Part shown: positions 29,642-62,032 of the stretch, in pieces
Layout: each line of letters opens with the position of its first letter
Position numbering within the stretch: the stretch's first letter is position 1
NCBI GenBank assembly: GCA_965283675.1
Contig: CBDIPQ010000005.1
Coordinates: forward strand, 91,196-155,195
DNA length: 64,000 nt
Reading direction: 5' to 3'
Source: Caulobacteraceae bacterium
Lineage (GTDB): Bacteria; Pseudomonadota; Alphaproteobacteria; Caulobacterales; Caulobacteraceae
The notes under the pieces: generated by a model
What the model was told of the DNA's origin: nothing
What the model saw: only the letters and a program-made list of their open reading frames with translations
Database searches by the model: none
Program-made: the position numbers and the translations under genes

Positions 29642-29663
29642 GTCGCTTTCGTAAACATACTAA
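29642..29663 (+). promoter_or_regulatory. Cluster-wide operator motif copy
   Basis: GTCGCTTTC GTAAAC ATACTAA in the divergent intergenic region. Confidence 0.7.
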
Positions 29664-29713
29664 TCAAGCGGGACGGCTTGGCAACCGGCTTGCGTTTCTG
29701 GACTGATGGCGTA

Positions 29714-29735
29714 TCGGTTCGGAATCGCAAGTCAC
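29714..29735 (-). promoter_or_regulatory. Cluster-wide operator motif copy (weaker)
   Basis: GTGACTTGC GATTCC GAACCGA, 15 bp before ATG 29750. Confidence 0.45.
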
Positions 29736-29749
29736 AGGATCCGCTTCGA

Positions 29750-30772: not shown

Positions 30773-30803
30773 TGTCAGCGGGTTGCCCGCTAACAAAAGT
30801 CAT

Positions 30804-30825
30804 GTCACTTTCATTCAAAGACTAA
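30804..30825 (+). promoter_or_regulatory. Cluster-wide operator motif copy
   Basis: GTCACTTTC ATTCAA AGACTAA, 24 bp before ATG 30849. Confidence 0.72.
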
Positions 30826-30848
30826 AAGAACGAACCGAGGAAACGACC

Positions 30849-31379: not shown

Positions 31380-31388
31380 GGTCCGATC

Positions 31389-32147: not shown

Positions 32148-32176
32148 CGCCGGCGCCACAAGGGGAGGGAAGTCCA

Positions 32177-33004: not shown

Positions 33005-34497
33005 AGCGCCCGTCCACCCCACGCGTCATGTCCACCCCCGGGATCGGCGAGATGTCGCCCCGGGGCATGGGCGCCCTTCTGGACATCCATGCGGCCCGCG
33101 ATCCGGACCGCCCGGCCCTGTCCTTCGAAGGCGAGACCCTGACCCGCGCCGCGCTGGCGTCGCGGGTCAATCGCCGCGCCCGGACCCTGGCGCGGCTGGG
33201 CGTGGAGGCGGGAGACTTCGTCGCCATCGCCCTGCCCAACACCCCGGCCTTCCTCGAACTGGCCTTCGCCGTCTGGGCCCTGGGCGCGCGCCCGCGCCCC
33301 TGTCGCACAAGCTGCCGGCGGCGGAGCTGGAGGGCGTCCTCGACCTGCTCAAGCCCCGGCTTGTGGTGATCAACGACGCGGCCAAGGCCGGCGGCTGGCC
33401 CGCCTTCGCGGAGGCGGACACCTTCGATGCGGCGGCCGATGACAGCCCCCTGCCGGAGAAGATCGCCCCGCACCTGAAGGCCATCGCCTCGGGCGGCAGC
33501 ACGGGCCGGCCCAAGGTCATCGTCGACATGTCGCCGGGCGTCGCCGATCCGGACAAGCCCCTGCTGGGCATGCTGCCGGACGACGACGTGCTGATGATCC
33601 CGGCCGCTGTACCACGCGGCCCCCTTCGGCATGACCTGCTTCGCCCTGGGCTGGGGCCTGCACGTGGTGCTGATGCCGCGCTTCGACGCCGAGGAAGCCC
33701 TGCGCCTGATCGAGCGCTACAGGGTGCGCTGGCTGTTCCAGGTGCCGACCATGATGCACCGCATCTGGGCCCTGCCGGAGGCGGTGAAGGCCCGCTACGA
33801 CATCTCGTCCTTGGACGCCGTCATGCACATCGCCGCGCCGTGTCCGCCGTGGCTCAAGCAGGCCTGGATCGACTGGGTCGGCCCCGAGACGGTGTGGGAG
33901 CTCTACACCGGCACCGAGGCCATGGGCGGCACCGGCATCAACGGCCTGCAGTGGCTTGAGAAGCCCGGCTCGGTCGGCCGGGTCCTGCCCGGCTACGAGA
34001 TGCAGGTGCTGCGTCCGGACGGCTCGGCCTGCGACGTGGACGAGGTCGGCGAGATATTCTTCCGGCCGCTGCGAGGGCAGGGGACCACCTATCGCTACCT
34101 GGGCGCCGAGCCCAAGGCGGTGGGCGAGTTCGAGACCCTGGGCGACATGGGCCGGCTGGACGCCGACGGCTATCTCTTCCTCGCCGACCGGCGCGTGGAC
34201 ATGATCCTGTCGGGCGGCGCCAACGTCTATCCGGCCGAGGTCGAGGCGGCGATCGACGCCTTCCCCGGCGTCCAGTGCAGCGTGGTCATCGGCCTGCCGG
34301 ACAACGACCTGGGCCAGCGCGTCCACGCCATCGTTGAGACGGCGGACGGGCGGCTGGACGCCGCGGCGCTGACCGCCTTCCTCGCCGAGCGCATCGCCCG
34401 CTACAAACAGCCGCGCACCTTCGAGGCCACCGCTGAACGGCTGCGCGACGACGCCGGCAAGGTGCGTCGGGGCCAGCTTCGGGCGGAGCGGATCTGA
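33001..34497 (+). CDS. Acyl-CoA synthetase (bile-acid-CoA-ligase-like subfamily); frameshifts at about 33288 and 33600
   Basis: Three ORF pieces give SGGSTGRPK, PGPLYHAAPF, LYTGTE, TLGDMG, ILSGGANVYPAEVE. Confidence 0.85.
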
Positions 34498-34500
34498 CGT

Positions 34501-34620
34501 TTCTCCCTCCCTCTTGTGGGGAGGGATGTCGGCGCGCAGCGACGACAGGGTGGGGGCTGTGCGGCTGCTCCCCACCCGTCTCGCTTCGCGAGCCACCCTC
34601 CCCACAAGGGGGAGGGAGAA
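34501..34620. repeat. 120-bp palindromic intergenic element (Caulobacter CIR/REP-like) between convergent genes
   Basis: 25-bp terminal inverted repeat TTCTCCCTCCCTCTTGTGGGGAGGG / CCCTCCCCACAAGGGGGAGGGAGAA (1 mismatch) plus inner GGGTGGGG / CCCCACCC pair. Confidence 0.8.
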
Positions 34621-34621
34621 C

Positions 34622-35394: not shown

Positions 35395-35436
35395 GGCGTC
35401 TCTCCCGTTCTTGTCGTTCGGCAAACGCTAGGACGG

Positions 35437-35458
35437 TAAGTTTGTTTATGCAAGTGAC
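35437..35458 (-). promoter_or_regulatory. Cluster-wide operator motif copy overlapping a candidate -35
   Basis: GTCACTTGC ATAAAC AAACTTA; contains TTGCAT, followed 17 bp later by TAGCGT (35430-35425) pointing at the NTF2 pair. Confidence 0.72.
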
Positions 35459-35510
35459 ATGGCCGCACTTTCAAACGTGGACTTTCACGTCCTCGCGAGC
35501 GCGTTCGGGA

Positions 35511-36452
35511 TCAGGCGATCGTGTGCCCCTTGCCGGGCTTCAGCAGCACGTCGGCCATCTTCAGCCGGCCCTTGCAGCAGCTGCAGTCTACCTCGCTGCT
35601 CAGGGCGGCGCCGCACTCGTGCCGGATGCGGACGGGCGGTCCCGCCTTGTCCCTCAGCCAGGCGTCGGCCCAGGTCAGCATGGTCAGGGCGTGGGGATAC
35701 AGGTCCAGCCCCTTCTTGGTCAGCCGGTACTCGTACCGGGGCGGGGTGATCTCATAGAGCCGCCGCTCGAAGATGCCCGCGTTCTCCAGCGTGCGCAGCC
35801 GGTCGGTCAGGATGTTGGACGCGATGCCCAGCATGTTCTGCATCTCGTCGAAGCGGTGGATGCCGAAATACTGGACGCTGACCACCAGGCCGGTCCAGCG
35901 GTCGCCCAGCAGGTCGACCAGCTCCAGCACCGGCGTCGTGTCGGTCGGCTGACGCTTGCGGTGCATGCGTTGGACCGGCAGCTTCTCCATCCCCTGGCCG
36001 GGACCAGGGACGAAGCTGCAGCTGCGCAGGGTCAGCAGTTCGCCGCAGGCGGTGCAGCGCACCTCGGGCAGCATGGGCTTGCCGCACACCTCGTGGATGA
36101 AGACCGTCGGCGCGCGGCGGCCGGCCACGCCCCAGCGCACGCCCCAGCCCCACATCAGGATCATGCTGTCGAACAGGTCCAGCCCGCGCGGCGTCAGATG
36201 GTAGGCCATTCGCGCGCCCTCGTCCCGGTGCGGGCGCTTCTCGAGAATGTCGTGCCGCTCCAGCGCCTGCAGCCGGCTGGACAGGGTGCTGCGGGCGCCG
36301 CCCAGCCGTTCGTGGAACTCCTCGAACCGCGTGGCGCCGAGGAAGGCTTCCTGAACGATCAGCAGGCTCCATCTATCGCCGAGCGCGTTCAGCGCCCGGT
36401 TCAGGGAACTCTTTGGAACCAGCCGGGTCTTCGTCGCGCCTTGGGAAACCAT
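35511..36452 (-). CDS. Transcriptional regulator with two tandem HxlR-type wHTH domains
   Basis: Two GDRW...RF.E...LG...L..RL..L...YxLTxxGxDL units. Confidence 0.9.
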   Translation of the reverse strand: MVSQGATKTRLVPKSSLNRALNALGDRWSLLIVQEAFLGATRFEEFHERLGGARSTLSSRLQALERHDILEKRPHRDEGARMAYHLTPRGLDLFDSMILMWGWGVRWGVAGRRAPTVFIHEVCGKPMLPEVRCTACGELLTLRSCSFVPGPGQGMEKLPVQRMHRKRQPTDTTPVLELVDLLGDRWTGLVVSVQYFGIHRFDEMQNMLGIASNILTDRLRTLENAGIFERRLYEITPPRYEYRLTKKGLDLYPHALTMLTWADAWLRDKAGPPVRIRHECGAALSSEVDCSCCKGRLKMADVLLKPGKGHTIA

Positions 36453-36483
36453 GGCTTGTCTTAGCGGTCTCGTTGAACGGGAT

Positions 36484-38110
36484 TCAAGCGGTTGAGAGTT
36501 TCTGACGACGAACGGTCAGGCCGGCGGCCTCCCGGTCGAAGGTCTCCGCCGTGATTCCCTCCGCCCTCAGGCCGGTCTTCTGGATCTTGTTGGTGGGGGT
36601 CTTGGGCAGCTCCGCCTCGATCCGCACATAGCGCGGCACCATGAAGTGGGTCATGCGCGGGATCAGATATTCGACCAGCTCCCTCGGATCGATCGTCGCG
36701 CCCGCAACCGGGGCGACGGCGACCATCACCTCCTGTTCCCCGCCCGGCAGGTCGACGCCATAGGCCGCCGCCTCGCGCACGGCGGGGTGGCCGCAGACCT
36801 CGATCTCGATCTCCAGCGACGACATGTTCTCGCCCCGCCGGCGGATCGCGTCCTTCTTGCGGTCGATGAAGAAGAAGCAGCCCTCGGCGTCGCGGCGCAT
36901 CAGGTCGCCGGTGTGGAACCAGCCGTTGCGCCAGGCCTCCGCCGTCGCCTCCGGATCGCCCAGATAGCCGTGGCTCAGGGTCCAGGGGCTGTCCGCGCGG
37001 ATCACCAGTTCGCCGGGCTCGCCGTGCGGAACCTCGTTGTCGAAGGCGTCTACGATGCGGCACTCCATGCCCTCGCGCGCCCGGCCGCAACTGCGCATCA
37101 CCGTCTCGTTGACCGCGCAGATCAGCGGCCCCGAAACCTCGGTCATGTTGAAGCCCGAGATGTAGTCGAAGCCGAACCGCTCGGCGAGCGCGACCGTGTC
37201 CTCGGTGATGGGGGCGAGCGTCACCATGCGCAGCGGATTGTCCCGGTCGTCCGGTCGGGGCGGCTCCTTCATCAGGAAGGCCGTCAGGGCGCCGATCAGG
37301 CCGCTGCACACGGTCAATTCCGTCTCGCGGATCACGTCCCAGAAGCGCCGGGTGTCGAAAGCCTCGAACAGGGCCACGGAACCGCCGCAGGCCACCGCCG
37401 CCGTGATCGCGGCGATGCCGCCGACATGGAACATCGGCAGGTTGACCAGCATCCGGTCGCCGCCGTGCATGTAGCCGTAGGTGACCTTCCCGGTCGTCCA
37501 CTCCTGCACATAGGAGGTCAGCACCGCCTTGGACGGCCCCGTGGTGCCGGAGGTGAAGATGATCACCGGGCTGTCCCACGGATCGGACTCCACCCGCGCA
37601 TAGGCCGCCGCGTCGCCGGCCAGGGCCGTGGCGGGTTCGACCGCGACGCCCAGGTTGACTTGCCCGGTCGCTTCGCCCGTCAGGATCAGTCCGTCGACGG
37701 CGCCCAGCGACAGGCCTTCCAGCCGCCCGACCAGATCGGGGTGCACGATCAGCAGTCGGGCTCCGGTCTTGCCGATCGCATGCTCCAGCAGCTTGCCGCG
37801 GAAGCTGGTGTTGATCGGGGCCAGGGCCGCGCCCGCATAGTTCGCGCCGAACCACGAGCGCACCAGCGCCGCCGAATGGCGTCCAGGCGGCGACGATGTC
37901 GCCCTTCTTCACCCCGCGCGCCTGCAGGGCGGCGGCGGTCTCAAGCGCCTTTCGCCGGGTCTCGGCCCAGGTCCAGGTCTCGCCGGTCTCATAGCGGATG
38001 AACACCTTGTCGGGCGTCTCGGCGGCGTAGCGGTCCAGCAGGCGCGGGATCACGCACTCGTCCGCCGTGGGCGGCGTCGGGTCGAACCAGGGCAGCTTCA
38101 ACCCGCTCAC
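36484..38110 (-). CDS. Acyl-CoA synthetase (CaiC/DitJ-like subfamily); frameshift at about 37877
   Basis: FTSGTTGPSK, GFNMTE, WFHTGD, DRKKDAIRRRGEN; GTGA overlap with the MFS stop. Confidence 0.88.
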
Positions 38111-39489: not shown

Positions 39490-39492
39490 CAA

Positions 39493-39514
39493 TCAATCTA
39501 AAGATGAAAGTGAC
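39493..39514 (-). promoter_or_regulatory. Cluster-wide operator motif copy
   Basis: GTCACTTTC ATCTTT AGATTGA immediately before the MFS start. Confidence 0.68.
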
Positions 39515-39772
39515 TTGCCGATCCGATCCCGGCGCGCGGGTGGATTTCGGCAAGGGATTTCGCGGTCCGCGGAAACGGGCCGGGCTGTTCGCTGTGACGT
39601 GTGACCGATGTCTCCACGGGTCCGTCTCAACTCCCTGTTATACCGCCGGTTTTCCGGTCTGGTTGGTGTCGTTGGGGCCGCGGATTTCCGTTCTTCCAAA
39701 CGGGTCTGCGGGCCCTGTGACAGCCTTAACCCAATCAAGCACAGATGTTGGTCTGATTACAAAAGCTATTTG

Positions 39773-39794
39773 ACAGTCTCGTTCTGCAAGTTAC
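39773..39794 (-). promoter_or_regulatory. Cluster-wide operator motif copy overlapping TTGACA (39770-39775)
   Basis: GTAACTTGC AGAACG AGACTGT, about 50 bp upstream of the TonB-dependent receptor. Confidence 0.7.
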
Positions 39795-39845
39795 ACCTAG
39801 CACTGAAGCACCTCGGCTAAACGGGGGCTCATGGGAGGATAGGGC

Positions 39846-42177
39846 GTGACCATTCGAGGTTCCATCAGCGTATCCGCATTGCTTCTGGCCGCATCTCTGG
39901 CGCATCGCCGGCATGGGCCCAGACCGCTCCGCAAACACCGTCGCAGGACACCGCGACCCAGATCGACGACGTCATCGTCACCGCGACCAAGCGGGAAGAG
40001 CGGCTCATCGATGTGCCCGTGGCCGTCACCGCCATCGGCGCGCAGCAGCTTCAGAACTCCGGCGTCTCGGACATCCGCGAACTGACCGGCCTGGCGCCGA
40101 GCGTGCAGTTCCAGACCCCGGGCGGCGGCGCCAACTCGTCGATCCGCATCCGCGGCATCGGCACCACCTCCACCAACCCGGGCCTGGAGTCCTCGGTCGG
40201 CGTGGTGATCGACGGGGTGACCCGCGCCCGCACCGGCGTGGCCCTGTCCGAGCTCGGCGACCTGGAACGGATCGAGGTCCTGCGCGGACCGCAGGGCACC
40301 CTGTTCGGCCGCAACACCTCCTCGGGCCTGATCAACATCGTCACCCGGACGCCCAGCTTCACCGGCGTCGAGGGCCGCCTTGAAGGCACCTACGGCGACT
40401 TCTCCAACATGCGCGTGGCCGGGGCCGTCAATCTGCCCTGTCGGACAACGCCGCCCTGCGGGTGGAGGCCAGTTCGGAAACCCGCGACGGCTTCTATCCG
40501 GACGCCAACAGCCAGGAGACCCTGGACAACCTGGATCGCCAGTTCATCCGCGCCAAGCTGCGCTACGAGCCGACCGACACCCTGCGCTGGATGTTCAGCG
40601 CCGACTACACCAACCGCGAAGAGAACTGCTGCGTCGCGGTGCTGGCCATCGCCGGCCCGACCTACGGCCTGGTGAACAGCCTGTCCGCCGCGCGGGGCCA
40701 GATCGGCTACACCAGCACCAACCCCTTCGACCGGCAGGCGTCCAAGACCGCCGGGCGCGTGAACTCCGAGAACATCGTCGACTGGGGCCTGTCGGCCCAG
40801 GCCGACTGGGACCTCGGCTGGGCCAACCTGACCTCGGTCACGGCCTACCGCAGCTGGGAAGCCTCGCGCTCGCAGGACTTCGACCACTCGGGCGCCGACC
40901 TGGGCTTCTTCGCCCCGGACGGCCTGCACCAGAACTTCGACGTCTTCACCCAGGAACTGCGCCTGCAGGGCACGGCCGGCATGGTCGACTGGCTGGTCGG
41001 GGCCTATTATTCGGATGAGGATGTCCGCAACAACTCCGCCTACCGGATGGGCGCCGACTATCCGCTGATCTACGGCGGCGCGGCCACCTTCCAGGCCACG
41101 ACCCTGGCCGCCTTCACGCCCGGCGACGGCGCGCGGGGCGTGGGCGAGCAGAACGGCCGGGACATCTCGGTCTTCACGCACAACATCTTCAACATCACCG
41201 ACCAGCTCAGCGTCACCGCCGGCCTGCGCTACACCAACAACAAGAAGTCGATCGACTTCTGGGGCCAGAACTTCAACCCCGCCTGCGACAGCGCCGTGGC
41301 GACCGGCGATGCGCCCGGCATCACCCGCTTCTGCGCCCCCTTCTGGGACACGCGGATGAACCCGGCGGGCGACACGGACTCGCGCAGCGAGGACGCCGTC
41401 ACCGGCACCTTCAACGTGGCCTATGAGTTCGCTCCGAACGTGAACGGCTATGTCTCCTATTCGCGGGGCTACAAGTCGGGCGGCTACAATTTCGACCGCG
41501 CCGGCTTCACTACTCCGGCGACGCCGAACGCGCGCGACCTGGCCTTCTCGGAAGAGACGGTGGACGCCTATGAGGTCGGCCTGAAGACCGAGTTCTTCGA
41601 CCGCCGCCTGATCGCCAACATGGCGGTCTTCCACCAGACCTTCTCGGGCTTCCAGCTGATCGAGTACACGGGCGTCAACTTCGTCGTCCGCAGCCTGGAA
41701 GAGGCGGTGTCCAAGGGCGCCGAGATCGAGGTGACCTGGCGGCCGATGGACGGCCTGACGATCACCAACGGCCTCAGCTACACGGACGCCTACTATCCGG
41801 TCAGCCCCGGCAACTCGACCTATTCGGGCCGGGAGATGGAGCAGTCGCCGGACTGGGTGAACGTGACCTCGGTCACCTACGAGTTCCCGATCTCGGGCGA
41901 CCTGACCGGCGTGGCCTATATGGACAACCGCTACAGCTCCGAGTTCTTCACCGGCGGCTTCGATCCGAACCGGGTGCAGGAAGCCTTCTCGGTGGCCAAC
42001 GCCCGCTTCTCGCTGCGGCATGAGGGCGGCGACTGGGCGGTGGACCTGTGGGCCCGCAACGTCTTCGACAAGGATTATTATCGCCGCATCATTCCGGCCA
42101 CGTTCCAGGCCGGTTCGTACTCGGCCTTCCTCGGCGATCCCCGCACCTACGGGATCACCCTGCGCCGGAACTTCTGA
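39846..42177 (+). CDS. TonB-dependent receptor; frameshifts at about 39900 and 40437
   Basis: Signal peptide (SLGASPAWAQ after one G is restored), DDVIVTATKRE, ERIEVLRGPQGTLFGRN, terminal F (YGITLRRNF). Confidence 0.92.
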
Positions 42178-42211
42178 GACTTCCGAAGCGACTGCGTTTT
42201 CCTGAAAACTG

Positions 42212-43434: not shown

Positions 43435-43467
43435 AGTCCTGTTCTCCCTGTCCGCGCCATTCGCGGC

Positions 43468-43489
43468 GTCGCTTTCGAATTGATACTAA
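43468..43489 (+). promoter_or_regulatory. Cluster-wide operator motif copy
   Basis: GTCGCTTTC GAATTG ATACTAA; 18 of 22 positions identical to the copy at 29642. Confidence 0.75.
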
Positions 43490-43569
43490 AAGCCCTCGCC
43501 AACGACGACAAGGATGGTATTCTAACGCAACCCACTATGTTCCGGGCGAGCGCCCGCAAGGAGTGATCG

Positions 43570-45033
43570 ATGGGCTTTGAACCGTTCAAGGCGACGCTGC
43601 AGCCGAACGAGCATCCCTACATGACCGGCGCCTGGACGCCGCAGCATGAGGAGTTCACGGCCGAGGACATGCCGGTGATCGGGACCATCCCCACCGACAT
43701 CGACGGCGTCTATGTGCGCAACACCGAGAACCCGGTGCATGACCCGATCGGCCGCTATCACCCGTTCGACGGCGACGGGATGATCCACACCATGGTGCTG
43801 CGGGACGGCAAGGCCGCCTATCGCAACCGCTTCGTGCGCACCAAGGGCTTCCTGGCCGAACAGGCGGCGGGACGGGCGCTGTGGGCCGGACTGGCCGAGC
43901 ATCCGTCGCTGTCGGAATTGCCGGGCTGGGGCGCCCGGGGGGCTGAGGATTCGTCCTCGACCGACGTGATCATTCACGCCGGGGCGATCCTTTCGACCTT
44001 CTACCAGTGCGGCGAGGGTTATCGCCTTGATCCCTATACGATGGAGCAGCTGCCCAGCGCCGACTGGTGTCCGCCCGAGGGCATTTCGGCCCACCCCAAG
44101 GTGGACGAGAAGACCGGCGAGCTGCTGTTCTTCAACTACTCCAAGGCCGCGCCGCACATGCACTACGGCGTGGTCGGGCCGGACAACAAGCTGAAGCATT
44201 TCACGCCCGTGCCGCTGCCGGGCGCGCGCCTGCCGCACGACATGGCGTTCACGACCAACTATTCGATCCTCAACGACTTCCCGCTGTTCTGGGAAGAGGA
44301 CCTGCTGCCCAAGGGCATCCACGCGGCGCGGTTCCACGCCGACATGAAGTCGCGCTTCGGCATCATTCCGCGCTTCGGCGGGGCCGAGGACGTGCGCTGG
44401 TTCGAGGCCGACGCGACCTATGTGCTGCACTTCCTGAACGCCTGGGAAGACGGCGACGAGATCGTCATGGACGGCTATTTCCAGGACAATCCGGTGCCGA
44501 AAACCAGCCCGGACGCCTGGCCGGGTCATGAGCGGATCATGACCTTCCTGGACCAGAACATGCTGCAGCCGAAACTGCACCGCTGGCGCTTCAACCTGAA
44601 GACCGGCGCGACGACCGAGCAGCGGCTGGACGACCGGGTGCTGGAGTTCGGCGTCATCAACAACCAGTTCGCCGGCGTGAAGTACAAATACGCCTACAGC
44701 GCCGTGTCCAAGCCCGGCTGGTTCCTGTTCACCGGCCTGGTGAAGCACGACATGGACACGGGCGAGAGCTGGACCGTCGATTTCGGCCCGGAGCGCTACG
44801 GCTCGGAGCCCGGCTTCGCCCCGCGCATCGGCGCGACGGAAGAGGACGACGGCTATCTGATCACCTATGTCACCGACATGATCGAGAACCGGTCGGAGTG
44901 CGTGATCTATGATGCGCGCAAGCCGGCCGAGGGGCCGGTGGCGCGGATCATGCTGCCCGGCCGGATGTCCAGCGGGACCCACGCGACCTGGTCGCAGGGC
45001 GAAACCATCCGCGCCTCTCAGGCGGCGGCGTAA
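43570..45033 (+). CDS. Carotenoid-cleavage-oxygenase (RPE65/CCO) family dioxygenase 1
   Basis: RNTENP, HPFDGDGM, YRNRFV; four iron-ligand His motifs SAHPK, PHDM, VLHF, GTHATW. Confidence 0.93.
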   Translation: MGFEPFKATLQPNEHPYMTGAWTPQHEEFTAEDMPVIGTIPTDIDGVYVRNTENPVHDPIGRYHPFDGDGMIHTMVLRDGKAAYRNRFVRTKGFLAEQAAGRALWAGLAEHPSLSELPGWGARGAEDSSSTDVIIHAGAILSTFYQCGEGYRLDPYTMEQLPSADWCPPEGISAHPKVDEKTGELLFFNYSKAAPHMHYGVVGPDNKLKHFTPVPLPGARLPHDMAFTTNYSILNDFPLFWEEDLLPKGIHAARFHADMKSRFGIIPRFGGAEDVRWFEADATYVLHFLNAWEDGDEIVMDGYFQDNPVPKTSPDAWPGHERIMTFLDQNMLQPKLHRWRFNLKTGATTEQRLDDRVLEFGVINNQFAGVKYKYAYSAVSKPGWFLFTGLVKHDMDTGESWTVDFGPERYGSEPGFAPRIGATEEDDGYLITYVTDMIENRSECVIYDARKPAEGPVARIMLPGRMSSGTHATWSQGETIRASQAAA

Positions 45034-46263: not shown

Positions 46264-46267
46264 CGGC

Positions 46268-46308
46268 CGGACGGTCGTAAACACCGTCCGAAGCGTCCGA
46301 AGCGTCCG
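46268..46308. repeat. Hairpin plus short tandem repeat after the thiolase
   Basis: CGGACGGT-N7-ACCGTCCG, then GTCCGAAGC x2.5. Confidence 0.5.
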
Positions 46309-46388
46309 GATAGAGCTGCGCGTCGGGATGAGCATCGGCGCATCCTGGCACGCGCCTGCGTCAGGAACGGACGGATGGCTCGACTACG

Positions 46389-47347
46389 TCAAAATCGTCC
46401 TGGTCTGCCAGCAGACGGCGGCAAAGGACGCCTGATGCTGCTGCTCAGGCCCAGCAGTCCCGACGTCGGAGCCGCCCCGACGATCACGAGAGGAACGCCG
46501 CCGAGGTCCATCACCGTCTCACCGATCTCGGCGCTTGGCGGATAAAGAACGGACGGTCCCACGATCCACGGAGAATGGGCCACATCCATCACCATGTCGC
46601 GCGTGGCCGTCCTAATCCGCACGGCATGGGGCCGGGCCGGCAGGAAACGGCATGTCGCCGGGCCGAGATCGGGACGGGGCAATACCACGCTGAGCAGGTT
46701 CTCGCCGACGCTGGGAACGCACATCGCCGTCTCGCGGATCGTTTCGGCAAAGCGCGTTTCGACCTCTTCGATGGTGCAGTTCAAGCCTCCCTCGCCGCGC
46801 AATGACGCGAAGCGCGCACGGAACGCCTCGGTCGAGAGGCGCGCCCCAATGCTGTGAAGCCGGAACTCCTGTCCCTTGGCCGGGCGGCGAGGCGAACGCC
46901 GCACCGTCGTGACGCCTTCCCGACGTTCGATCTCCATGACGATAGGCCGTGCGCCATGTCGCTGCCCCTGCCATCCGGCGAGGGTGAGGTATAGGCCGTG
47001 CTTATCGACCGCCGCGGAAGCCAACCCCTTGATCGCGTGTTCAAGATGGGCCGCGGCCTGGCCGATATCGCGAAGAACAGGCGCCGGGCCGAAACTCTTC
47101 GCGGGCCGCTTCCCGTCGGGGCCGCGAGGTATGGGGCCGCCCCATAAGTCCCGGCGATCCAGTCATCCATCGGCACATCACCGACATAGGCGACGCCGGA
47201 ATAGCCGATCGACACCAGCGCATCCCTGGCGCGGTAGACGATGGTCTTGTTGGACATGACGTCGTGGGGGGCAGGCCCCACCGTAACGAGACGGTCGCTG
47301 ACCTGGACTACATAGATCGGGCACATGGCCGTGAGGACAAGCGTCAT
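46389..47347 (-). CDS. Orphan protein with proteasome-beta/Ntn-hydrolase-like N-terminus; frameshift at about 47150-47152
   Basis: MTLVL...SDRL...NK gives T1/D17/K33 after Met removal; one extra G joins ORF 46781-47347 to the frame of ORF 46389-47024. Confidence 0.6.
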
Positions 47348-47492
47348 GGCGTTCGCCCCTTCAGCGACGACAGCGTCTCACTCCAGATAGTCACCCCGAT
47401 GACGCTCCGCCTCCCCAGCCATGGGAATAGACGCCTGTCTTGATTTTGGCGGCGCAATCAGCGCCCACGCGCGCGGCGCCGTCATAGGACGA

Positions 47493-47975
47493 TCAGCGGG
47501 GAGAGCGGATCGACACCCCGACCGTGCCTTGCGCGATGACGAGGCCGTCGGGGGTGCTGATGGTCGCCTCGACCACGGCCTTGCGGGCGTCGTGGAAGGT
47601 CACCCGGCCGACCGTCTCCAGCCGGGCGCAGTCCATCGGGGCGGCGTTGAGGAAGCGCATCGACAGGTCGGTGGTCAGCAGGGTCTGGCCGGGCTCGAGA
47701 ATGGTCATGACGGCGCTGCCGCCCGCGACGTCCACCAGCGAGGCCAGGACCCCGCCGTGAACCAGACCCACGAAATTGGCGTGGCCGGGATCGAGATCGC
47801 AGACGATGCGGACCAGCCCTTCTTCGAACTCGACCGGCCAGGCGCCGAGCCGCTGCGGATAGCCGCCGACCGTGTCCGCCTTGCGCGCCCAGCGGCGCAG
47901 CAGTTCGAGGCCGGAAACGGTCGGGTCGAGCTCGAAGTCGACAGGCGCGACAACTCTGGCCGGAGCGGAGGTCAC
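47493..47975 (-). CDS. PaaI-family thioesterase (hotdog fold)
   Basis: HANFVGLVHGGVLASLVDVAGG, LTTDLSMRFL. Confidence 0.92.
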   Translation of the reverse strand: MTSAPARVVAPVDFELDPTVSGLELLRRWARKADTVGGYPQRLGAWPVEFEEGLVRIVCDLDPGHANFVGLVHGGVLASLVDVAGGSAVMTILEPGQTLLTTDLSMRFLNAAPMDCARLETVGRVTFHDARKAVVEATISTPDGLVIAQGTVGVSIRSPR

Positions 47976-48925
47976 GCCGCGGCCCCTTGTATCCGGCGGG
48001 CGCCCGTGCGGGTCTGGAAGCGGGCGATGGCGGCGTCGTATTCGCCGGACAGCTGGTCGACGATCTTGCTGACCGGCTCGACGGCGCGGACGGCCTCAAG
48101 CCCCTGGCCGGCGGCCCAGATATCGCGCCAGCGCTTGGTCGAGCCGCCCGAGGTGTAGTTGCGGTCCGGGGCGGCGCCGAGGTTGTCGGGATCCTGGCCG
48201 GCGGCCAGCAGGCTGGGGCGCAGCCACGAGGCCGGGGTGCCGGTGACCGAGGCGGAGACGACCAGATCGTCGGGACCCGCGTCCACGACCATCTGCTTGT
48301 ACTCCGGCTGGGCCATGCTCTCTTCGGAGGCCAGGAAGCGCGTCCCCATGTAGACGAAGTCCGCGCCCGCCGCGACGGCGCCGGCCACGCCCGCCCCATC
48401 GCCGATCCCGCCGCCGACCGCGATATAGCCGTCGAAGAAGTCGCGCACCGCCGAGATGAAGGCGAAGGGCGACAGGTGGCCGGTGTGGCCGCCGGCGCCG
48501 GCGCTGACGCAGGCCAGGCCGTCAACGCCCGCCTCGGCCGCCTTCTTCGCCAGCTTCATCGAGACGACGTCGGCGAAGACCAGGCCGCCGTAGCCCTTGA
48601 CCGTCTCCATGACCGGCTTCGGAGATCCGAGGGCGGTGATCACGACCGGCGGCTTGTATTCGGCGATCAGGCGCAGGTCCTCAGGGAGCCGGGCGTTGGT
48701 CGAGTGGGTGATCATGTTGGCGATCCACGGGGCGTCGCCCGGCTTCAGCGCGTCGGTGATCGTGCCCATCCACGCATCCAGGTCCTCGACCGTGCGGCAG
48801 TTGGGGGTGGGGAAGGCCCCGCCCACGCCGGCCCTGCAGGCGGCGATGACCAGTTCCGGCCCGCTGATCAGGAACATGGGCGCCGCGAATACGGGCAGGC
48901 GCAGGGTGTCGAAGGGGGAGGTCAT
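47972..48925 (-). CDS. Nitronate monooxygenase / FabK-like FMN oxidoreductase
   Basis: AAPMFLISG, AGAGGHTG, GGIGDG, YMGTRF; ATGA overlap fixes the start at 48925. Confidence 0.9.
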   Translation of the reverse strand: MTSPFDTLRLPVFAAPMFLISGPELVIAACRAGVGGAFPTPNCRTVEDLDAWMGTITDALKPGDAPWIANMITHSTNARLPEDLRLIAEYKPPVVITALGSPKPVMETVKGYGGLVFADVVSMKLAKKAAEAGVDGLACVSAGAGGHTGHLSPFAFISAVRDFFDGYIAVGGGIGDGAGVAGAVAAGADFVYMGTRFLASEESMAQPEYKQMVVDAGPDDLVVSASVTGTPASWLRPSLLAAGQDPDNLGAAPDRNYTSGGSTKRWRDIWAAGQGLEAVRAVEPVSKIVDQLSGEYDAAIARFQTRTGARRIQGAAA

Positions 48926-55044: not shown

Positions 55045-55046
55045 GG

Positions 55047-56195: not shown

Positions 56196-56203
56196 ACTGA
56201 TCC

Positions 56204-57673
56204 TCAGGCGGCGACTTGTGCGCCGGGCGCCCAGGTCCCGTGGAAGCCGGCGGGCACGCGGGCGGGCAAGGGAATGCGGGCGATAGGGCCGGCCTCGAAA
56301 TCCTTGGCCGCGATGACCTGGACCTCGGAGGCGCCCGTGGCCTCGTCGGTGGTGAAGACGATGACGTAGCCGTCGTCTTCGTCGACCGCGCCGACGCGGG
56401 GGGCGAAGGCGGGCTCCGAGCCGCCGACGCCGGGCGCGAAGTCATGCGTCTTCGCCGCGCCGGTGTTGAGGTCGTACTTGATCAGGCCCGAGAAGCGCTG
56501 CAGTTCCTGCTTCGCCATCGAGACATGGTAGGACCAGTTCGTCTTGCGGCCGGTGTAGTCGAGGTTGACCACCGGGAACTCGCCGATGCGGTCGTCCAGC
56601 CGGCGCTTCTTCACCTCGCCCGTGACCATGTTCATGCGCCACTCGACCGGCACGGCGTTCAGCGCCAGCACATTGACCATCGAGGCGTAGGGGCCATAGG
56701 CCGGGTTCGGCGGATAGCCGTTCGGCGTCATCATGCAGGCGGTCATGACGACCTCGTCGCCGTCCTCCCAGGCGTTGACGACGTGGTAGATGTAGCAGGT
56801 CTCGGTTTCGAACCAGCGGACCTGATCGCCCTTGCCGTTCTTGGGGACGACGCCGAAGCGGGCGGGCTGGTCGGCCACCTTGATCTGCCACATCGAGTTG
56901 CGCAGTCCGGCCTCGGTGAAGACCACCGGGAGGTCGTGCAGGATGATGTAGTTCTCGGTCAGGCCCATGTCGTGCGGCAGGCGCGGTCCGGGCAGGTCGA
57001 CCTTCTGGAAATTGGTCAGGTTGTTCTGGGCATCGACCACGCCGAAGGTCATCCACGGCTCGTAGAGCGAATAGTCGAAGAAGCAGAACTCGCCGGTCTT
57101 GGGATCGACCTTGCCGTGGGCCGAGACGTGGCGGGGCAGGGCGCCGCCGAAGGTCTCGTTGCCGATCGTCTCCAGGGTGTTGGCGTGGACCCGCACCGGC
57201 TTGCCCGAGATGTACCAGAGCGCCATCAGCGAGCCGTTGTGGAAGACCAGATCGGTGTTGGCCGTGTCCTTGTAGACGAGGTCGCCGCGCTGCGACCCCG
57301 GACGGGTCCGCGCCGAGGGGGCCATGACCCCGCCCGCGTGGATGTCGAGCCCGGCCTTTTCGGCGCGGTAGTCGTCGGTTCCGACATAGCGGTTGCGGTA
57401 TTCGGCCTTGCCGTTCTCGAACCAGATGGCGTGGACCATGCCGTCGCCGTCGAACCAGTGATGCAGGCCCGCCGGCGCCTGGGCCGGGTTGGGACCATTG
57501 CGCACGAAGGCGCCGTACAGGTCTTTGGGAATCTCGCCGATGACGGGCAGGTCCAGCGCCGTCGTCTCGGTCGCCACAGGCTCGTAGAGGCCCTGCAGAT
57601 AGGGGTTCAACTGGTTCAGCGGGGTGAGTTCACCGGTCTCGATCCGGCGCGCCGCGGTCGCGTCATCGGCCAT
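56204..57673 (-). CDS. Carotenoid-cleavage-oxygenase (RPE65/CCO) family dioxygenase 2
   Basis: RNGPNP, HWFDGDGM, YRNRYV; His motifs SAHGK, PHDM, IYHV, GFHGTW. Confidence 0.93.
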   Translation of the reverse strand: MADDATAARRIETGELTPLNQLNPYLQGLYEPVATETTALDLPVIGEIPKDLYGAFVRNGPNPAQAPAGLHHWFDGDGMVHAIWFENGKAEYRNRYVGTDDYRAEKAGLDIHAGGVMAPSARTRPGSQRGDLVYKDTANTDLVFHNGSLMALWYISGKPVRVHANTLETIGNETFGGALPRHVSAHGKVDPKTGEFCFFDYSLYEPWMTFGVVDAQNNLTNFQKVDLPGPRLPHDMGLTENYIILHDLPVVFTEAGLRNSMWQIKVADQPARFGVVPKNGKGDQVRWFETETCYIYHVVNAWEDGDEVVMTACMMTPNGYPPNPAYGPYASMVNVLALNAVPVEWRMNMVTGEVKKRRLDDRIGEFPVVNLDYTGRKTNWSYHVSMAKQELQRFSGLIKYDLNTGAAKTHDFAPGVGGSEPAFAPRVGAVDEDDGYVIVFTTDEATGASEVQVIAAKDFEAGPIARIPLPARVPAGFHGTWAPGAQVAA

Positions 57674-57712
57674 GGTTCGGCTCCTTGGGTCTTGAAATGC
57701 AATCTGCTCTTG

Positions 57713-57734
57713 CCGGTCCGTTTGTGCAAGTCAT
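57713..57734 (-). promoter_or_regulatory. Cluster-wide operator motif copy
   Basis: ATGACTTGC ACAAAC GGACCGG, 40 bp upstream of dioxygenase 2. Confidence 0.62.
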
Positions 57735-58645: not shown

Positions 58646-58654
58646 CCGCCCCTC

Positions 58655-58676
58655 CATGCTTGCGTAAAAAGACTTG
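58655..58676 (+). promoter_or_regulatory. Cluster-wide operator motif copy
   Basis: CATGCTTGC GTAAAA AGACTTG in the divergent SDR/receptor gap. Confidence 0.55.
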
Positions 58677-58681
58677 CAAAC

Positions 58682-58703
58682 TTGGTCCGTTGGCGCAAGT
58701 TAC
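58682..58703 (-). promoter_or_regulatory. Cluster-wide operator motif copy
   Basis: GTAACTTGC GCCAAC GGACCAA, inverted relative to the copy at 58655. Confidence 0.65.
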
Positions 58704-58759
58704 TATTCCTGTCGAGCTTTCGATCAACGAGAGCCGCTGCCCTGGGGAGGGAAACGCCA

Positions 58760-60958
58760 ATGAAGTTCGTTCACGCCACAACCGCCTCCGTCGCCGCCCT
58801 GATGCTGGGGGCCGCGCTCGCCGCGCCCGCCGCCGCGCAGGAGGCGCCGCCGCAGGACGCCGCCACCCTCGACGAGGTGATCGTCACGGCGCAGCGCCGC
58901 GAGCAGAGCCTGCAGGACGTGCCGATCGCCATCACCGCCTTCAACGCCGAGACGCTGGAGCGCACGGCGGCGACAGGCATCCAGGACATCGCGGCCAAGG
59001 CGCCGGGCGTGACCCTGACCCAGTTCAACATCGGCGAGCCGCAGCTCTACATCCGCGGCGTCGGGTCCTCGAGCAACTCGGCGGCCAGCGATCCCTCGAT
59101 CGGCGTCTCCATCGACGAGGTGTCGATCGGCCGGTCGGGCGCCAGCGCCCTGGCCTTCCTCGACATCGAACGGGTCGAGGTCCTGCGCGGGCCGCAGGGG
59201 ACGCTGTACGGCCGTAACGCCTCAGGCGGGGCGCTGAACATCTACACCCGCAAGCCGGTCTTCCAGAACACCGGCAGCCTGACGGCCCGGATCGGCAGCT
59301 TCGACGAGTACGGGCTCGAAGGGGTGGTGAACCGCCAGCTGGACGACGAGACCGCGATCCGCTTCGCCGCCCGCTACAACACCAACGACGGCTATGCCGA
59401 GAACGTCCCGACCGGCCGGGGGCTGGAGGGCGGAACGTCCTTGGGCGCGCGCGTGTCGGTGCTGAAGGAGGCGGGCGAATGGAGCCTCCTGCTGAGCGGC
59501 GACTATTCGAAGGACGACATGGACGGGCACGCCCGCATCCCGGTCACGACCTCGGCCACCGCGCCGGCCTTCGTCACCCTGATCAATACCCTGCGGACGG
59601 GCCTGGACCGGCGGCAGAGCTTCTCGTCGCCGGACAACTATCAGGACCGCACCAATTTCGGCGTGACGGCGCGGGTCGAGCATTCCGGCCAGGCGTTCGA
59701 CTTCGTCTCCCTGACCTCGTTCCGGGACAACGACTACAGCTGGCGGGACAATCTGGGCGGCCTGCCGTTCCCGGCCTTCCCGCTGGAGGTGGACGACCGG
59801 GCCTCGGAGAAGGCGCGCCAGTTCAGCCAGGAGTTCCGGCTGGCGTCCAAGCCGGGATCCGACATCAACTGGGTCGCCGGCGCCTATGTGTTCCAGGAAG
59901 ACATCCTGCGGAGCGAGCGCTTCATCGTGAACACGGCGCTGCCCATCGCGCCGCCGTCGTTCGGCGGCGACACCACCTTCATCCAGGATGCGACCAACCG
60001 CAGCTTCGCCGTCTTCGGCCAGGCCAACATCCCGTTCGCGGACATCTGGGAGCTGACGCTGGGCGCCCGGTGGACGCATGACAAGCGCGAGATCCACCAG
60101 ATCGCGATCGACAACGAGGGCGGCGCCAATCCGCCTCCGGGCATTCCGCTGGGGCCGGGCGGCGCGCCCTACAACGTCAGCGGCGACGAGAGCTTCAGCG
60201 AGCCGAGCTGGAAGATCGCCCTGGCGGTCGAGCCGGTCGACAACGTGCGCCTCTACGCCAGCTATGACCGGGGCTACAAGGCGGGGGCCTTCCCGTCGAC
60301 GGCCCAGTCCGGCGCCCAGGCGCTGACGCCGCTCGCGTCGGAACTGCTCGACAACTACGAGATCGGGGTGAAGTCGACCCTGATGGGCCGGCTGCGCTTC
60401 AACGCGGCGGCGTTCAAGCTCGAGTACACCGACCTGCAGGTCTATGAGCTGCTGGGACTGGCGCTGGTCACCTCCAACGCCCAGGCCGAGGTGGACGGGT
60501 TCGAGATCGAGACCGCCCTGGCGATCACCAACAACCTGACCATCGGCGGCTCGTACACCAGCCTGGATGCGAAGTTCACGTCGAACGCCGCATCGGGCGC
60601 GCTGGTCCTGCCCTACAACGGCAACACCCTGCCGCGGTCGCCGGACAGCCAGTACACCCTGTACATCGACAGCGAATGGGACGTGGCCGGCGGCGTGCTG
60701 GCGGCGCGGGCCGACTATCAGTGGACCGACGCCTTCTACTTCGATCCGTCGAACAACCCCGAGGTCCTGTCGCCGGAGCACGAGCTGGTCAGCGCCTTCC
60801 TGTCGTGGGAGTCGCCGTCGGGCCTGAAGATCTCGGCCTACGGCAAGAACCTGACGGACACCGAGTACCAGACCCACATCATCAAGAACGTGGGCGTGGG
60901 CTTCAGCGTCTTCGGGGCGCCGCGCTCTTTCGGCGTGGCCCTGAGCCAAAGCTTCTAG
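58760..60958 (+). CDS. TonB-dependent receptor
   Basis: GGGGAGG RBS, signal peptide, DEVIVTAQRRE, ERVEVLRGPQGTLYGRN, terminal F. Confidence 0.95.
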   Translation: MKFVHATTASVAALMLGAALAAPAAAQEAPPQDAATLDEVIVTAQRREQSLQDVPIAITAFNAETLERTAATGIQDIAAKAPGVTLTQFNIGEPQLYIRGVGSSSNSAASDPSIGVSIDEVSIGRSGASALAFLDIERVEVLRGPQGTLYGRNASGGALNIYTRKPVFQNTGSLTARIGSFDEYGLEGVVNRQLDDETAIRFAARYNTNDGYAENVPTGRGLEGGTSLGARVSVLKEAGEWSLLLSGDYSKDDMDGHARIPVTTSATAPAFVTLINTLRTGLDRRQSFSSPDNYQDRTNFGVTARVEHSGQAFDFVSLTSFRDNDYSWRDNLGGLPFPAFPLEVDDRASEKARQFSQEFRLASKPGSDINWVAGAYVFQEDILRSERFIVNTALPIAPPSFGGDTTFIQDATNRSFAVFGQANIPFADIWELTLGARWTHDKREIHQIAIDNEGGANPPPGIPLGPGGAPYNVSGDESFSEPSWKIALAVEPVDNVRLYASYDRGYKAGAFPSTAQSGAQALTPLASELLDNYEIGVKSTLMGRLRFNAAAFKLEYTDLQVYELLGLALVTSNAQAEVDGFEIETALAITNNLTIGGSYTSLDAKFTSNAASGALVLPYNGNTLPRSPDSQYTLYIDSEWDVAGGVLAARADYQWTDAFYFDPSNNPEVLSPEHELVSAFLSWESPSGLKISAYGKNLTDTEYQTHIIKNVGVGFSVFGAPRSFGVALSQSF

Positions 60959-61920
60959 GGAAGAGGCTGGGCGGCGTCGGGAGTTCCCGGCGCCGCCTCG
61001 ACTTCCCAGCGGATGTTGCGCGGGTCCAGCAGGCGGCCCGTCGCCAGGTCGCAGACGACCGGATGGATCGCCTCGCCGGTGCGGGTGTCGACCAGTTTCA
61101 GCGGCGGCCCGTCGGGGCAGAGCCAGCGCTCGCTCCAGCCGTGCATGGCCATGATCATCGGGAACAGGTCCAGGCCGGCCTGGGTCAGCCGGTATTCGAA
61201 GCGCGGCGGCGCCTTCTGGTAGAGCTTCTTCTCAAGCACCCCGTGCAGGACCATGCGGTTCAAGCGGTCGGCCAGGATGTTGGTGGCGACGCCCAGCGCC
61301 TCGTGGATTTCGTCGAACCGGCGCATGCGGAAGAAGGCGGCGGCCAGCACCGCCCAGCTCCAGTAATCGCCCATGATGTCGGTCGAGCGGTCGATGATCG
61401 CCCGGTCCGTCTCCATCGGCTGGGTCCGGCGCCGGCGCGACGTCGGGGGCGCGATCGGGACCAGCCCCTCGCCCACCTCACCGCGGACGAAGTGCGGATC
61501 GACCGGCTGACCGCCTTCATGATTGAAGATGGCCGGGGTCACCGGCTCGCCGGTGTGGCGGTCGTAGAAGGCGAGGGCGTAGCGCTCCTGCAGGGGCGAG
61601 CGCGCCCACTTCCGCTCCCACTGGCCCTGCATGACGGCGGTGCCGAACATGTCGAGCCCCATTTCCGTCAGCCGGTACTCCAGGCGCGTCGGCAACTCCT
61701 TCGCCGGGCGCTGCTCGAACAGGCCGGCGGCGACGAGGCGGTTGAGCCGGTCGGTCAGGACGCTGCGCGGCATGCCGAGCCGGTCGCGCCACTGCGAGAA
61801 CCGCCGCGCGCCGTAGAAGGCCTCGCGCAGGATCAGTTGCGTCCAGGCGTCGCCCGTCACCGCGAACGCGCGGGCGACGGGGTTCCCCATGATCAGATCG
61901 CGTGTGGAAATCTGGTCCAC
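60955..61920 (-). CDS. Transcriptional regulator with two tandem HxlR-type wHTH domains
   Basis: GDAWT...RRFSQW...LEYRLTEMG and GDYWS...RRFDEI...FEYRLTQAG units; GAGGG RBS before GTG 61920. Confidence 0.9.
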   Translation of the reverse strand: MDQISTRDLIMGNPVARAFAVTGDAWTQLILREAFYGARRFSQWRDRLGMPRSVLTDRLNRLVAAGLFEQRPAKELPTRLEYRLTEMGLDMFGTAVMQGQWERKWARSPLQERYALAFYDRHTGEPVTPAIFNHEGGQPVDPHFVRGEVGEGLVPIAPPTSRRRRTQPMETDRAIIDRSTDIMGDYWSWAVLAAAFFRMRRFDEIHEALGVATNILADRLNRMVLHGVLEKKLYQKAPPRFEYRLTQAGLDLFPMIMAMHGWSERWLCPDGPPLKLVDTRTGEAIHPVVCDLATGRLLDPRNIRWEVEAAPGTPDAAQPLP

Positions 61921-62010
61921 GAGCCCTCGTTTCAATCCTGCTTCGGACCCTGTCTAGCACTCCGGACACTAAATCGCAGGTCCGGTGACGCAAGGGCGTG
62001 ATCAGGGCGA

Positions 62011-62032
62011 TAAATCCTGTTTTGCAAGTCAG
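62011..62032 (-). promoter_or_regulatory. Cluster-wide operator motif copy
   Basis: CTGACTTGC AAAACA GGATTTA in the divergent regulator/ligase gap. Confidence 0.62.

Follow-up and report, generated by a model that had tools for sequence, protein, structure and literature searches.

Which protein reads a short motif that recurs between the genes of a bacterial catabolic cluster, and what does it do there? The question arose from a 64,000-nucleotide stretch of a Caulobacteraceae genome (assembly GCA_965283675.1, contig CBDIPQ010000005.1, positions 91,196 to 155,195 of the forward strand), which we call the window. A sequence-only reading of the window had described an asymmetric 22-bp motif, present in about 11 copies at almost every promoter region of the cluster, and had proposed a repressor operator that makes the cluster one regulon, with the two HxlR proteins encoded there as candidate binders. 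Judging from sequence comparisons, we consider it quite likely that the motif serves as operator for a family of regulators with two HxlR domains in a single chain (tandem HxlR regulators). Two paralogs from this family, HxlR1 and HxlR2, are encoded within the cluster itself.

All of the 11 listed 22-mers were found exactly once in the window, with their coordinates and strands confirmed (sites are named below by first base and strand). Their common core, RCTTKCRNNNNNRDAY, gave 14 matches compared with 1.35 expected from 100 dinucleotide-preserving shuffles (largest value 5), and 13 of the 14 were intergenic and within the cluster. Since this pattern was derived from the sites themselves, two less circular tests were used. 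In a leave-one-out test, the matrix from the other 10 sites placed each omitted site at rank 1–13 of 127,958 positions. A foreign matrix, built from 104 sites in non-Brevundimonas genomes only, returned as its top 12 window matches 10 of the 11 listed sites plus two additional ones, 39769− and 43535−; the listed site 29735− reached only rank 15. In the intergenic DNA of the window, this matrix gave 11 matches above 12 bits versus 0.05 (maximum 1) in 300 shuffles of the same intergenic DNA. The motif is thus enriched over background by the shuffles and the leave-one-out test, with no site inside a window gene.

The description of the copies held up well, apart from their number: all 11 are real, but the total is 12 strong sites plus two to four weak ones (Table 1). 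The metal island (the first 28.6 kb) was said to have none, which is borne out: the best match in positions 1–28,600 reached only 12 bits. All copies were intergenic once gene starts had been corrected against orthologs. A promoter-bearing gap was defined as a divergent gap or a co-directional gap of >50 bp preceding a called gene start. At least one site was present in eight of eight such gaps between 28.6 and 64 kb, and none in the convergent gaps (34.5 kb and 42.2 kb), in tight operon junctions or in 46264–47492.

Motif and regulator were found together across genomes. We collected 80 genomic loci via the regulator alone, comprising 58 with a tandem HxlR gene and 22 with a single-domain HxlR gene. 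At 18 bits or more, the matrix of the window sites detected a site in 55 of the 58 tandem loci; in the 22 single-domain loci, it gave 5 matches. With ten Brevundimonas orthologs set aside, 45 of 48 tandem loci had a site (113 sites), where column-permuted matrices gave a mean of 4 (maximum 21). The taxa with sites included Phenylobacterium, Xanthobacter, Bradyrhizobium, Ensifer/Sinorhizobium, Tistlia, beta-, gamma- and deltaproteobacteria, and two actinobacteria. A site lay within 400 bp of the regulator open reading frame (ORF) in 31 of the 58 tandem loci. On a Sinorhizobium plasmid, the neighbouring genes encode an XDH-family molybdoenzyme, a lactonase, CoxG and a branched-chain-type ABC transporter. 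RPE65, DUF1295 and CoA ligase neighbours occurred in Caulobacteraceae and in a gammaproteobacterial metagenome-assembled genome, enoyl-CoA hydratase in actinobacteria, and a periplasmic binding protein and an aldo-keto reductase at other loci. Since the targets vary from taxon to taxon, what these loci have in common is the regulator. The motif travels with the tandem HxlR genes while the targets change, which favours the proposed operator tying the cluster into a regulon and the HxlR proteins as its binders.

The reverse test started from 120 metagenome contigs with an exact match to the consensus. A tandem HxlR gene was present on 19 of the 120, which are mostly short contigs, and 88 were linked directly or by flank homology. 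The 32 unlinked contigs were nearly all low-GC singletons, as expected of chance matches. Most contigs were 1–6 kb long and AT-rich genomes yield chance matches, so this test has supportive weight only.

Orthologous loci provided footprints of the sites. Two loci are orthologous to the first of the two sub-clusters described below (cluster 1), namely L202, with a 90% identical HxlR1 homolog, and L203, with a 78% identical one. In both, every cluster-1 position still has a site, and this holds for the tandem pair at the receptor gene and for the weak site 43535− too. In the gap between the short-chain dehydrogenase/reductase (SDR) gene and the receptor gene of the second sub-cluster (cluster 2), a 49-bp block with two sites face to face was the only conserved block among nine Caulobacterales loci, in some of which the neighbouring gene itself had changed. 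That the motif is the only conserved block in otherwise diverged orthologous intergenic DNA supports its role as an operator.

The anatomy of the site was resolved by a profile of the 113 distant sites and their flanks. Information was confined to positions 2–22 (T n A C T T G/T C A T W A n n A G A C T w A), between flat flanks, giving the 21-bp family consensus TnACTTGCATWAnnAGACTwA. Positions 2/22, 4/20, 6/18 and 11/13 are complementary about position 12. The pairs 5/19 (C/C), 7/17 (T/G) and 8/16 (G/A) are conserved but non-complementary, and of the pairs 9/15 and 10/14 the left member alone is conserved (C9 and A10). With its two unlike halves, the site is a pseudo-dyad and not a true palindrome. 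The earlier description as asymmetric was right about the diverged halves but missed the underlying 21-bp pseudo-dyad.

In the same collection of loci, true palindromes of equal span precede single-domain HxlR genes, for example TGAGTTGTTTCACGCAACTCA, TCAGTTGCACGACGCAACTGA and GTAGGTTTTGAATCAAAACTCAC. They have the form TnAGTTGC-N5-GCAACTnA, measure 21–23 bp and lie 50–82 nt upstream of PA1607-like genes (L059 at 9902–9924, L064, L075 and L078). They are probably the operators of the single-domain PA1607-like subfamily. Of this palindrome, TTGC survives in the left half of the tandem site and the ACTnA end in the right half. Such a pattern fits descent from a homodimer and its palindrome by duplication and fusion, followed by a presumed divergence of domains and half-sites. 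In an HxlR–DNA complex, the recognition helices lie 34.8 Å apart in successive major grooves, on sites of ~20 bp (PMC7835342). This spacing is compatible with conserved blocks ~12 bp apart.

The proteins have the corresponding architecture. HxlR1 and HxlR2 are single chains, each with two HxlR winged-helix domains and a short beta-rich extension after each domain. They are 35% identical paralogs, and the N-half of HxlR1 aligns to the C-half of HxlR2 (27% identity, E = 5e-16), indicating an internal duplication. HxlR1 has orthologs of 75–99% identity in a syntenic cluster of Brevundimonas; it is 90–92% identical to named Brevundimonas proteins and 99% identical to a metagenome protein. HxlR2 is 84–91% identical to Brevundimonas proteins. 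By these protein identities the window belongs to Brevundimonas. An AlphaFold2 model of HxlR2, based on 63 homologs, was a confident single body (pLDDT 90.5, pTM 0.88) with three strands following each wing. Relatives of the regulators in the PDB are YodB, HypR, HxlR and PA1607, and no PDB chain spans both HxlR2 halves. Each HxlR2 half resembles PA1374 (PDB 4gcv) and PA1607 (PDB 2f2e) of Pseudomonas aeruginosa, which consist of an HxlR domain and a beta-rich tail and are the best sequence and fold matches per half. These matches include the extension, with phmmer E-values of 5e-19 and 2e-18 over 112–137 residues and, by Foldseek, 32–38% identity and TM-scores of 0.55–0.74 when normalised to the target and ~0.3 when normalised to the query. 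Unlike HxlR1 and HxlR2, these two proteins are single-domain, with ~146–168 aa, and cover half the query. To our knowledge, neither of these structural-genomics proteins has a published function or operator.

The recognition helices are conserved per domain and differ between domains (P-R-S-V-L-x-D-R-L in the N-domain versus A-T/P-N-I-L-x-D-R-L in the C-domain). Both regulators lack a cysteine at the thiol-sensing position, in the C-P-V motif at the start of helix alpha-1. The N-domain has N18 there (N in 53 of 63 homologs, C in 5 of 63) and the C-domain has P or A. With the conserved sensing cysteine missing, thiol or redox sensing as in YodB and HypR is unlikely. HxlR1 also has a conserved H-x2-C ... 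C-x2-C pattern after each HxlR domain, at residues ~119–138 and 281–297 (HEVCG...CTAC and HECG...CSCC). The pattern, which resembles a small zinc-binding module, recurs in the distant relatives P0115 and P0117; in HxlR2 and its orthologs the residues are lost.

A profile search of 1.84 billion representative proteins returned 902 clusters at E ≤ 1e-30, and most of the listed top 150 had 300–340 aa. NCBIfam has no model for tandem HxlR proteins. Literature searches, with subscription literature outside their scope, turned up no relevant paper on HxlR regulators in tandem or duplicated form, on their operators or on the motif itself. On balance we think it probable that tandem HxlR proteins form a large uncharacterised family (~900 clusters at 50% identity) of natural pseudo-dimers, with domains specialised on unlike half-sites, and that their 21-bp operator has stayed near-constant from Alphaproteobacteria to Actinobacteria while pathways were exchanged.

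Is the site an operator or part of a promoter? None of 161 family sites lay inside a called gene, and 75 lay in divergent gaps. In co-directional contexts, 28 sites pointed toward the downstream gene and 18 away from it. The implicit rule of the earlier reading, that copies point at their gene, applies to the three unambiguous cases in the window but is not general. The 113-site profile contained no partner element at a fixed distance in the flanks. The variable orientation and the lack of such an element indicate an operator rather than a promoter. Three promoter readings were tried and dropped in view of the variable orientation. As a −35 with spacer, the motif is followed by no −10 in the window copies, with only a faint T peak family-wide. 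As an opposite-strand −10, it would have its invariant A18 at a non-consensus position. As a sigma-54 promoter, it has no GG/GC pair at the right spacing. If TTGCAT is taken as a −35, TAnnnT is found at the −10 place in 8 of 30 "toward-only" sites, which can serve none but the gene they point to, versus 0 of 19 "away-only" sites. A scan for E. coli-type promoters, whose consensus is uninformative for Caulobacterales, gave a single match across 14 kb of cluster 1, and cluster 2 had none. That match, the only sigma-70-like one in its region, is directed at the SDR gene, and 29642+ overlaps its −10 (TAGTAT).

Positions of the sites were also informative about the direction of control. Predicted sites lie 9–42 nt from start codons; across the family, distances to the nearest start have a lower quartile of 42 nt. 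Three divergent gaps contain face-to-face pairs, and each site there is 9–34 nt from the nearer start and 79–98 nt from the farther one. These gaps measure only 114–152 bp, contain two or three sites each and must accommodate two promoters. The close start codons, the filled short divergent gaps, the −10 overlap and the TAnnnT count at toward-only sites favour promoter occlusion, and we infer from site position that the regulators would act by repression. Each is a covalent pseudo-dimer whose N-domain and C-domain would each read one half-site. As repressors, HxlR1 and HxlR2 would occlude the promoters until a pathway metabolite releases them, upon which uptake (two TonB-dependent receptors and a major facilitator superfamily (MFS) transporter) and catabolism would be switched on together. 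The catabolic targets would include two RPE65-family dioxygenases, CoA ligases, thiolases and dehydrogenases, along with the regulators' own operons. HxlR2 probably regulates itself via 62032−.

The copies also show recurrent arrangements. The same-strand tandem copies at 39748–39794 and 57686–57734 have start-to-start distances of 25 and 27 bp, and the face-to-face pairs in divergent gaps are separated by intervals of 5, 24 and 50 bp. The tandem and face-to-face copies suggest cooperative or multi-copy occupancy. A third, overlapping site (58669+) in the pair at 58655–58703 was rejected, as it lacks the invariant A18 (9 bits).

Several points weigh against operator function under HxlR repression. 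The link between regulator and site is one of association. Three of the 58 tandem loci have no site of at least 18 bits, and two of these have none even at 15 bits. L204, a separately collected metagenome contig on which a 63% identical HxlR1 homolog stands in an unrelated context beside a glyoxalase gene, has nothing above 12 bits over 21 kb. The operator is thus not used, or not kept close by, throughout the family. Flank clustering in the reverse test was by single linkage on short contigs and can over-link. In rhizobia, a strong conserved site occurs at a convergent junction, where a promoter operator is unexpected. This copy (16485–16506 in L081, Sinorhizobium chiapasense pB, and also in L043, L050 and L052) lies between the ends of a CoxG-like gene and an ABC permease operon, and it may point to a gene or RNA missing from the annotation, or act as a roadblock. 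Bacillus subtilis HxlR, the namesake of the family, activates hxlAB (PMC7835342), so repression cannot be assumed from the family. Finally, the recognition helices of the paralogs are near-identical and one motif is common to both. HxlR1-neighbourhood sites have T at position 8 in 14 of 28 and A at position 16 in 21 of 28; HxlR2-neighbourhood sites have G at position 8 in 29 of 30, with position 16 divided between G (14 of 30) and A (13 of 30). This hints that the paralogs may be partially specialised for site variants, although orthologous sites are not independent. The cluster may accordingly form one shared regulon or two paralog-specific ones.

The same protein–site pair could also work in the opposite sense, with the tandem HxlR protein as an activator or dual regulator that recruits RNA polymerase when effector-bound. 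The left half of the motif, ACTTGCAT, resembles an alphaproteobacterial −35, for which the rhizobial promoter consensus is CTTGAC, and the weak T peak lies 12 nt past the motif, where a −10 would end. The precedent of B. subtilis HxlR and the near-absence of canonical sigma-70-like promoters from the gaps, as expected of activator-dependent promoters, point the same way. However, that scarcity was measured with the E. coli consensus, the orientation of the sites varies, and sites 9–34 nt from start codons or between close divergent genes leave no room for polymerase downstream at several promoters. We regard activation as unlikely. A different transcription factor, either global or encoded elsewhere, might bind the motif, making the proximity of tandem HxlR genes incidental. 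Association is not binding, and 27 of the 58 tandem loci either have no site or have their nearest one >400 bp from the regulator gene. Yet the loci were gathered via the regulator only and nearly all of the distant ones have the motif amid differing genes, related palindromes occur at single-domain HxlR loci, and the pseudo-dyad geometry suits a two-domain winged-helix protein, which together make such a factor improbable. A promoter for an alternative sigma factor, such as an extracytoplasmic function (ECF) sigma factor serving the TonB-dependent receptors, would account for the TTGC element and for the three of three co-directional window copies that point at the downstream gene. It is very improbable given the mixed orientation in the family, conserved blocks only ~12 bp apart with no fixed-distance partner, divergent-gap copies that face each other rather than outward, and no sigma or anti-sigma gene among the scanned cluster genes. 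Chance similarity or a REP-like dispersed repeat is effectively refuted: AT-richer intergenic DNA (35% AT, in a window of 68% GC) does inflate scores of a genome-background matrix, but shuffled intergenic DNA and column-permuted matrices did not reproduce the matches, conservation stops at 21 bp and persists at orthologous positions and across phyla, and Rfam 15 gave no match in the whole window at the gathering threshold.

The proposed tandem HxlR repressors can be compared with known systems. HxlR/DUF24 members (HxlR, YodB, CatR and HypR of B. subtilis and QorR of Corynebacterium glutamicum) have the same PF01638 winged helix, sites of ~20 bp and a local action, often on a divergent or adjacent operon. 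HxlR1 and HxlR2 belong to this family by their PF01638 matches, but they depart from the usual small homodimer: known members have subunits of 100–130 aa, whereas here two domains share one chain of 313–326 aa. Most known members sense electrophiles, oxidants or formaldehyde via an N-terminal cysteine, which is replaced here (N18), and the present targets are catabolic and uptake operons under sites with diverged halves. MarA, SoxS and Rob at the marbox offer another parallel, as one polypeptide with two helix-turn-helix (HTH) modules reads unlike halves of an asymmetric ~20-bp site in either orientation at many promoters. Unlike the tandem HxlR proteins, these have AraC-type HTH domains, for which there is no Pfam match here, act mainly as activators with a site orientation that depends on promoter distance, and have neither a pseudo-dyad nor an internal duplication of a dimeric ancestor. 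The MarR-type repressors of aromatic and lignin-derived compound clusters in Sphingomonadales (for example PhcR and DesR of Sphingobium lignivorans SYK-6, PMC12447483) coordinate catabolic operons by the ligand-released winged-helix repression that we propose here. They are homodimeric, with palindromic, regulator-specific operators, in contrast to the present consensus, which is common to members only 30–40% identical in different phyla.

With these assignments, a hitherto anonymous cluster of 35 kb becomes a defined regulon whose parts can be tested, and a family that databases call just "winged helix-turn-helix transcriptional regulator" receives a DNA site. The site can be used to predict targets in rhizobial plasmids, marine gammaproteobacteria, Bradyrhizobium-like soil bacteria and actinomycetes. 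If the assignment is true, a single matrix would make it possible to reconstruct the regulons of hundreds of orphan catabolic and uptake clusters, and the family would be a natural model of a palindromic operator and its homodimer co-evolving into an asymmetric pair after gene fusion.

Table 1. Predicted operators, weak candidate sites, tandem HxlR regulators and gene content of the cluster. Scores are bits with the window matrix unless the foreign matrix is named; L202 and L203 are the loci orthologous to cluster 1.
Feature	Position	Strand	Score	Placement or content	Orthologous sites
Predicted operator GTCGCTTTCGTAAACATACTAA	29642–29663	+	31.5; foreign 24.5	26 nt upstream of SDR(−) start 29615; 86 nt upstream of DapB-like(+) start 29750	L202
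Weak candidate site CCGGCTTGCGTTTCTGGACTGA	29685–29706	+	14.5; foreign 11.7		same place in L202 (15.2 bits), not in L203
Predicted operator GTGACTTGCGATTCCGAACCGA	29714–29735	−	foreign only 10.8	14 nt upstream of DapB-like(+) start 29750; 98 nt from SDR start	L202 (24.3 bits)
Predicted operator	30804–30825	+		23 nt upstream of SnoaL_4 ATG 30849, ribosome-binding site between	25 nt (L202) and 15 nt (L203) from independently called starts
Predicted operator, best match GTCACTTGCATAAACAAACTTA	35437–35458	−	34.5; foreign 32.3	42 nt upstream of SnoaL_2/LEH-like gene pair; 52 nt downstream of HxlR1 stop	L202, L203
Weak candidate site	35464–35485	+			
Predicted operator	39493–39514	−		111 nt upstream of MFS transporter start 39381; heads MFS/CoA-ligase/HxlR1 operon	L202, L203
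Predicted operator, additional ATAGCTTTTGTAATCAGACCAA	39748–39769	−	21.2; foreign 24.3	~75 nt upstream of TonB-dependent receptor start (~39845); 3 bp downstream of 39794−, tandem pair	identical 22-mer in L202
Predicted operator	39773–39794	−		~50 nt upstream of TonB-dependent receptor start	
Predicted operator	43468–43489	+		33 nt upstream of acyl-CoA dehydrogenase(−) start 43434; 80 nt upstream of RPE65-family dioxygenase(+) start 43570	L202, L203, L010
Predicted operator, additional GTGGGTTGCGTTAGAATACCAT	43514–43535	−	13.6; foreign 15.1	face to face with 43468+; 34 nt upstream of dioxygenase ATG	stronger: L202 (20.4 bits), L203 (16.5 bits)
Weak candidate second site	57686–57707	−	10.3; foreign 12.3	5 nt downstream of 57734−; 12 nt upstream of dioxygenase ATG	
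Predicted operator	57713–57734	−		39 nt upstream of second RPE65-family dioxygenase start 57673; heads 10-kb minus-strand operon 57673–47493	L001–L004
Predicted operator	58655–58676	+		9 nt upstream of SDR(−) start 58645; 83 nt upstream of TonB-dependent receptor ATG 58760	conserved block in 9 aligned loci
Predicted operator	58682–58703	−		face to face with 58655+ (5-bp gap); 56 nt upstream of receptor ATG; 36 nt upstream of SDR start	conserved block in 9 aligned loci
Predicted operator	62011–62032	−	27.4	HxlR2(−)/CoA-ligase(+) divergent gap; 57 nt from ligase start 62090; ~90 nt from HxlR2 start 61920	L001–L003, upstream of orthologous regulator
HxlR1	35511–36452	−	PF01638 E 1.1e-39, two stretches	313 aa	
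HxlR2	60955–61935	−	PF01638 E 1.7e-36, two stretches	321–326 aa; probable start GTG 61920	
Cluster 1, left part				SDR(−); then DapB_N-like(+), SnoaL_4, SDR, DUF1295, CoA ligase	
Cluster 1, middle				two SnoaL_2/LEH-like genes(−); MFS/CoA-ligase/HxlR1 operon(−)	
Cluster 1, right part				TonB-dependent receptor(+); acyl-CoA dehydrogenase(−); RPE65-family dioxygenase and thiolase-like gene(+)	
Cluster 2, 10-kb operon		−		second RPE65-family dioxygenase, thiolases, aldehyde dehydrogenase, two CoA ligases, NMO-type reductase, hotdog thioesterase	
Cluster 2, remainder				SDR(−); second TonB-dependent receptor(+); HxlR2(−); CoA ligase(+)	

The gene map was drawn from GC3/GC2 statistics and then corrected against orthologs, which set the starts of the DapB-like, SnoaL_4 and MFS genes (29750, 30849 and 39381), and gene content was assigned by Pfam and NCBIfam scans. 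The cluster of ~35 kb comprises cluster 1 (28.6–46.3 kb) and cluster 2 (47.5–64 kb). Overall it encodes two RPE65-family dioxygenases, six CoA ligases, two TonB-dependent receptors and one MFS transporter. The metal island before it encodes a P-type ATPase and a CDF transporter as well as two RND/MFP efflux sets. A Megablast search of 18 kb of the cluster against PLSDB gave only short weak matches to sphingomonad plasmids. The ~1.2 kb between the sub-clusters (46264–47492) has low coding signal and no motif copy, and the ORFs there (46389–47024, minus, and 47421–48158, plus) have no Pfam or NCBIfam match. The dioxygenases (43570–45033 and 56204–57673) match models for apo-carotenoid as well as lignostilbene dioxygenases, with scores far short of the equivalog cut-offs. 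Judging from the CoA-ligase, thiolase, dehydrogenase, SnoaL and DUF1295 genes, the pathway substrate may be an isoprenoid or stilbenoid-like compound degraded via CoA thioesters.

Several genes are interrupted. Compared with intact orthologs in L202 and L203, one CoA ligase (33067–34494, +) has two frameshifts, a second CoA ligase (36487–38110, −) has one near 37865, and the TonB-dependent receptor at 39845–42174 (+) has one near 40440. Either the assembly has indel errors here or the genes are genuine pseudogenes. In the metal island, the P-type ATPase (6928–9431, +) is seemingly split as well, into overlapping frames 6928–8505 and 7587–9431, of which the C-terminal part alone was scanned, and frameshifts may therefore be a sequence-quality issue across the window. 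The convergent gap 34498–34621 carries a long G/C-rich inverted repeat (CTCCCTCCCTCTTGTGGGGAGGGA ... CCCTCCCCACAAGGGGGAGGGAG), which is a REP-like element or a bidirectional terminator.

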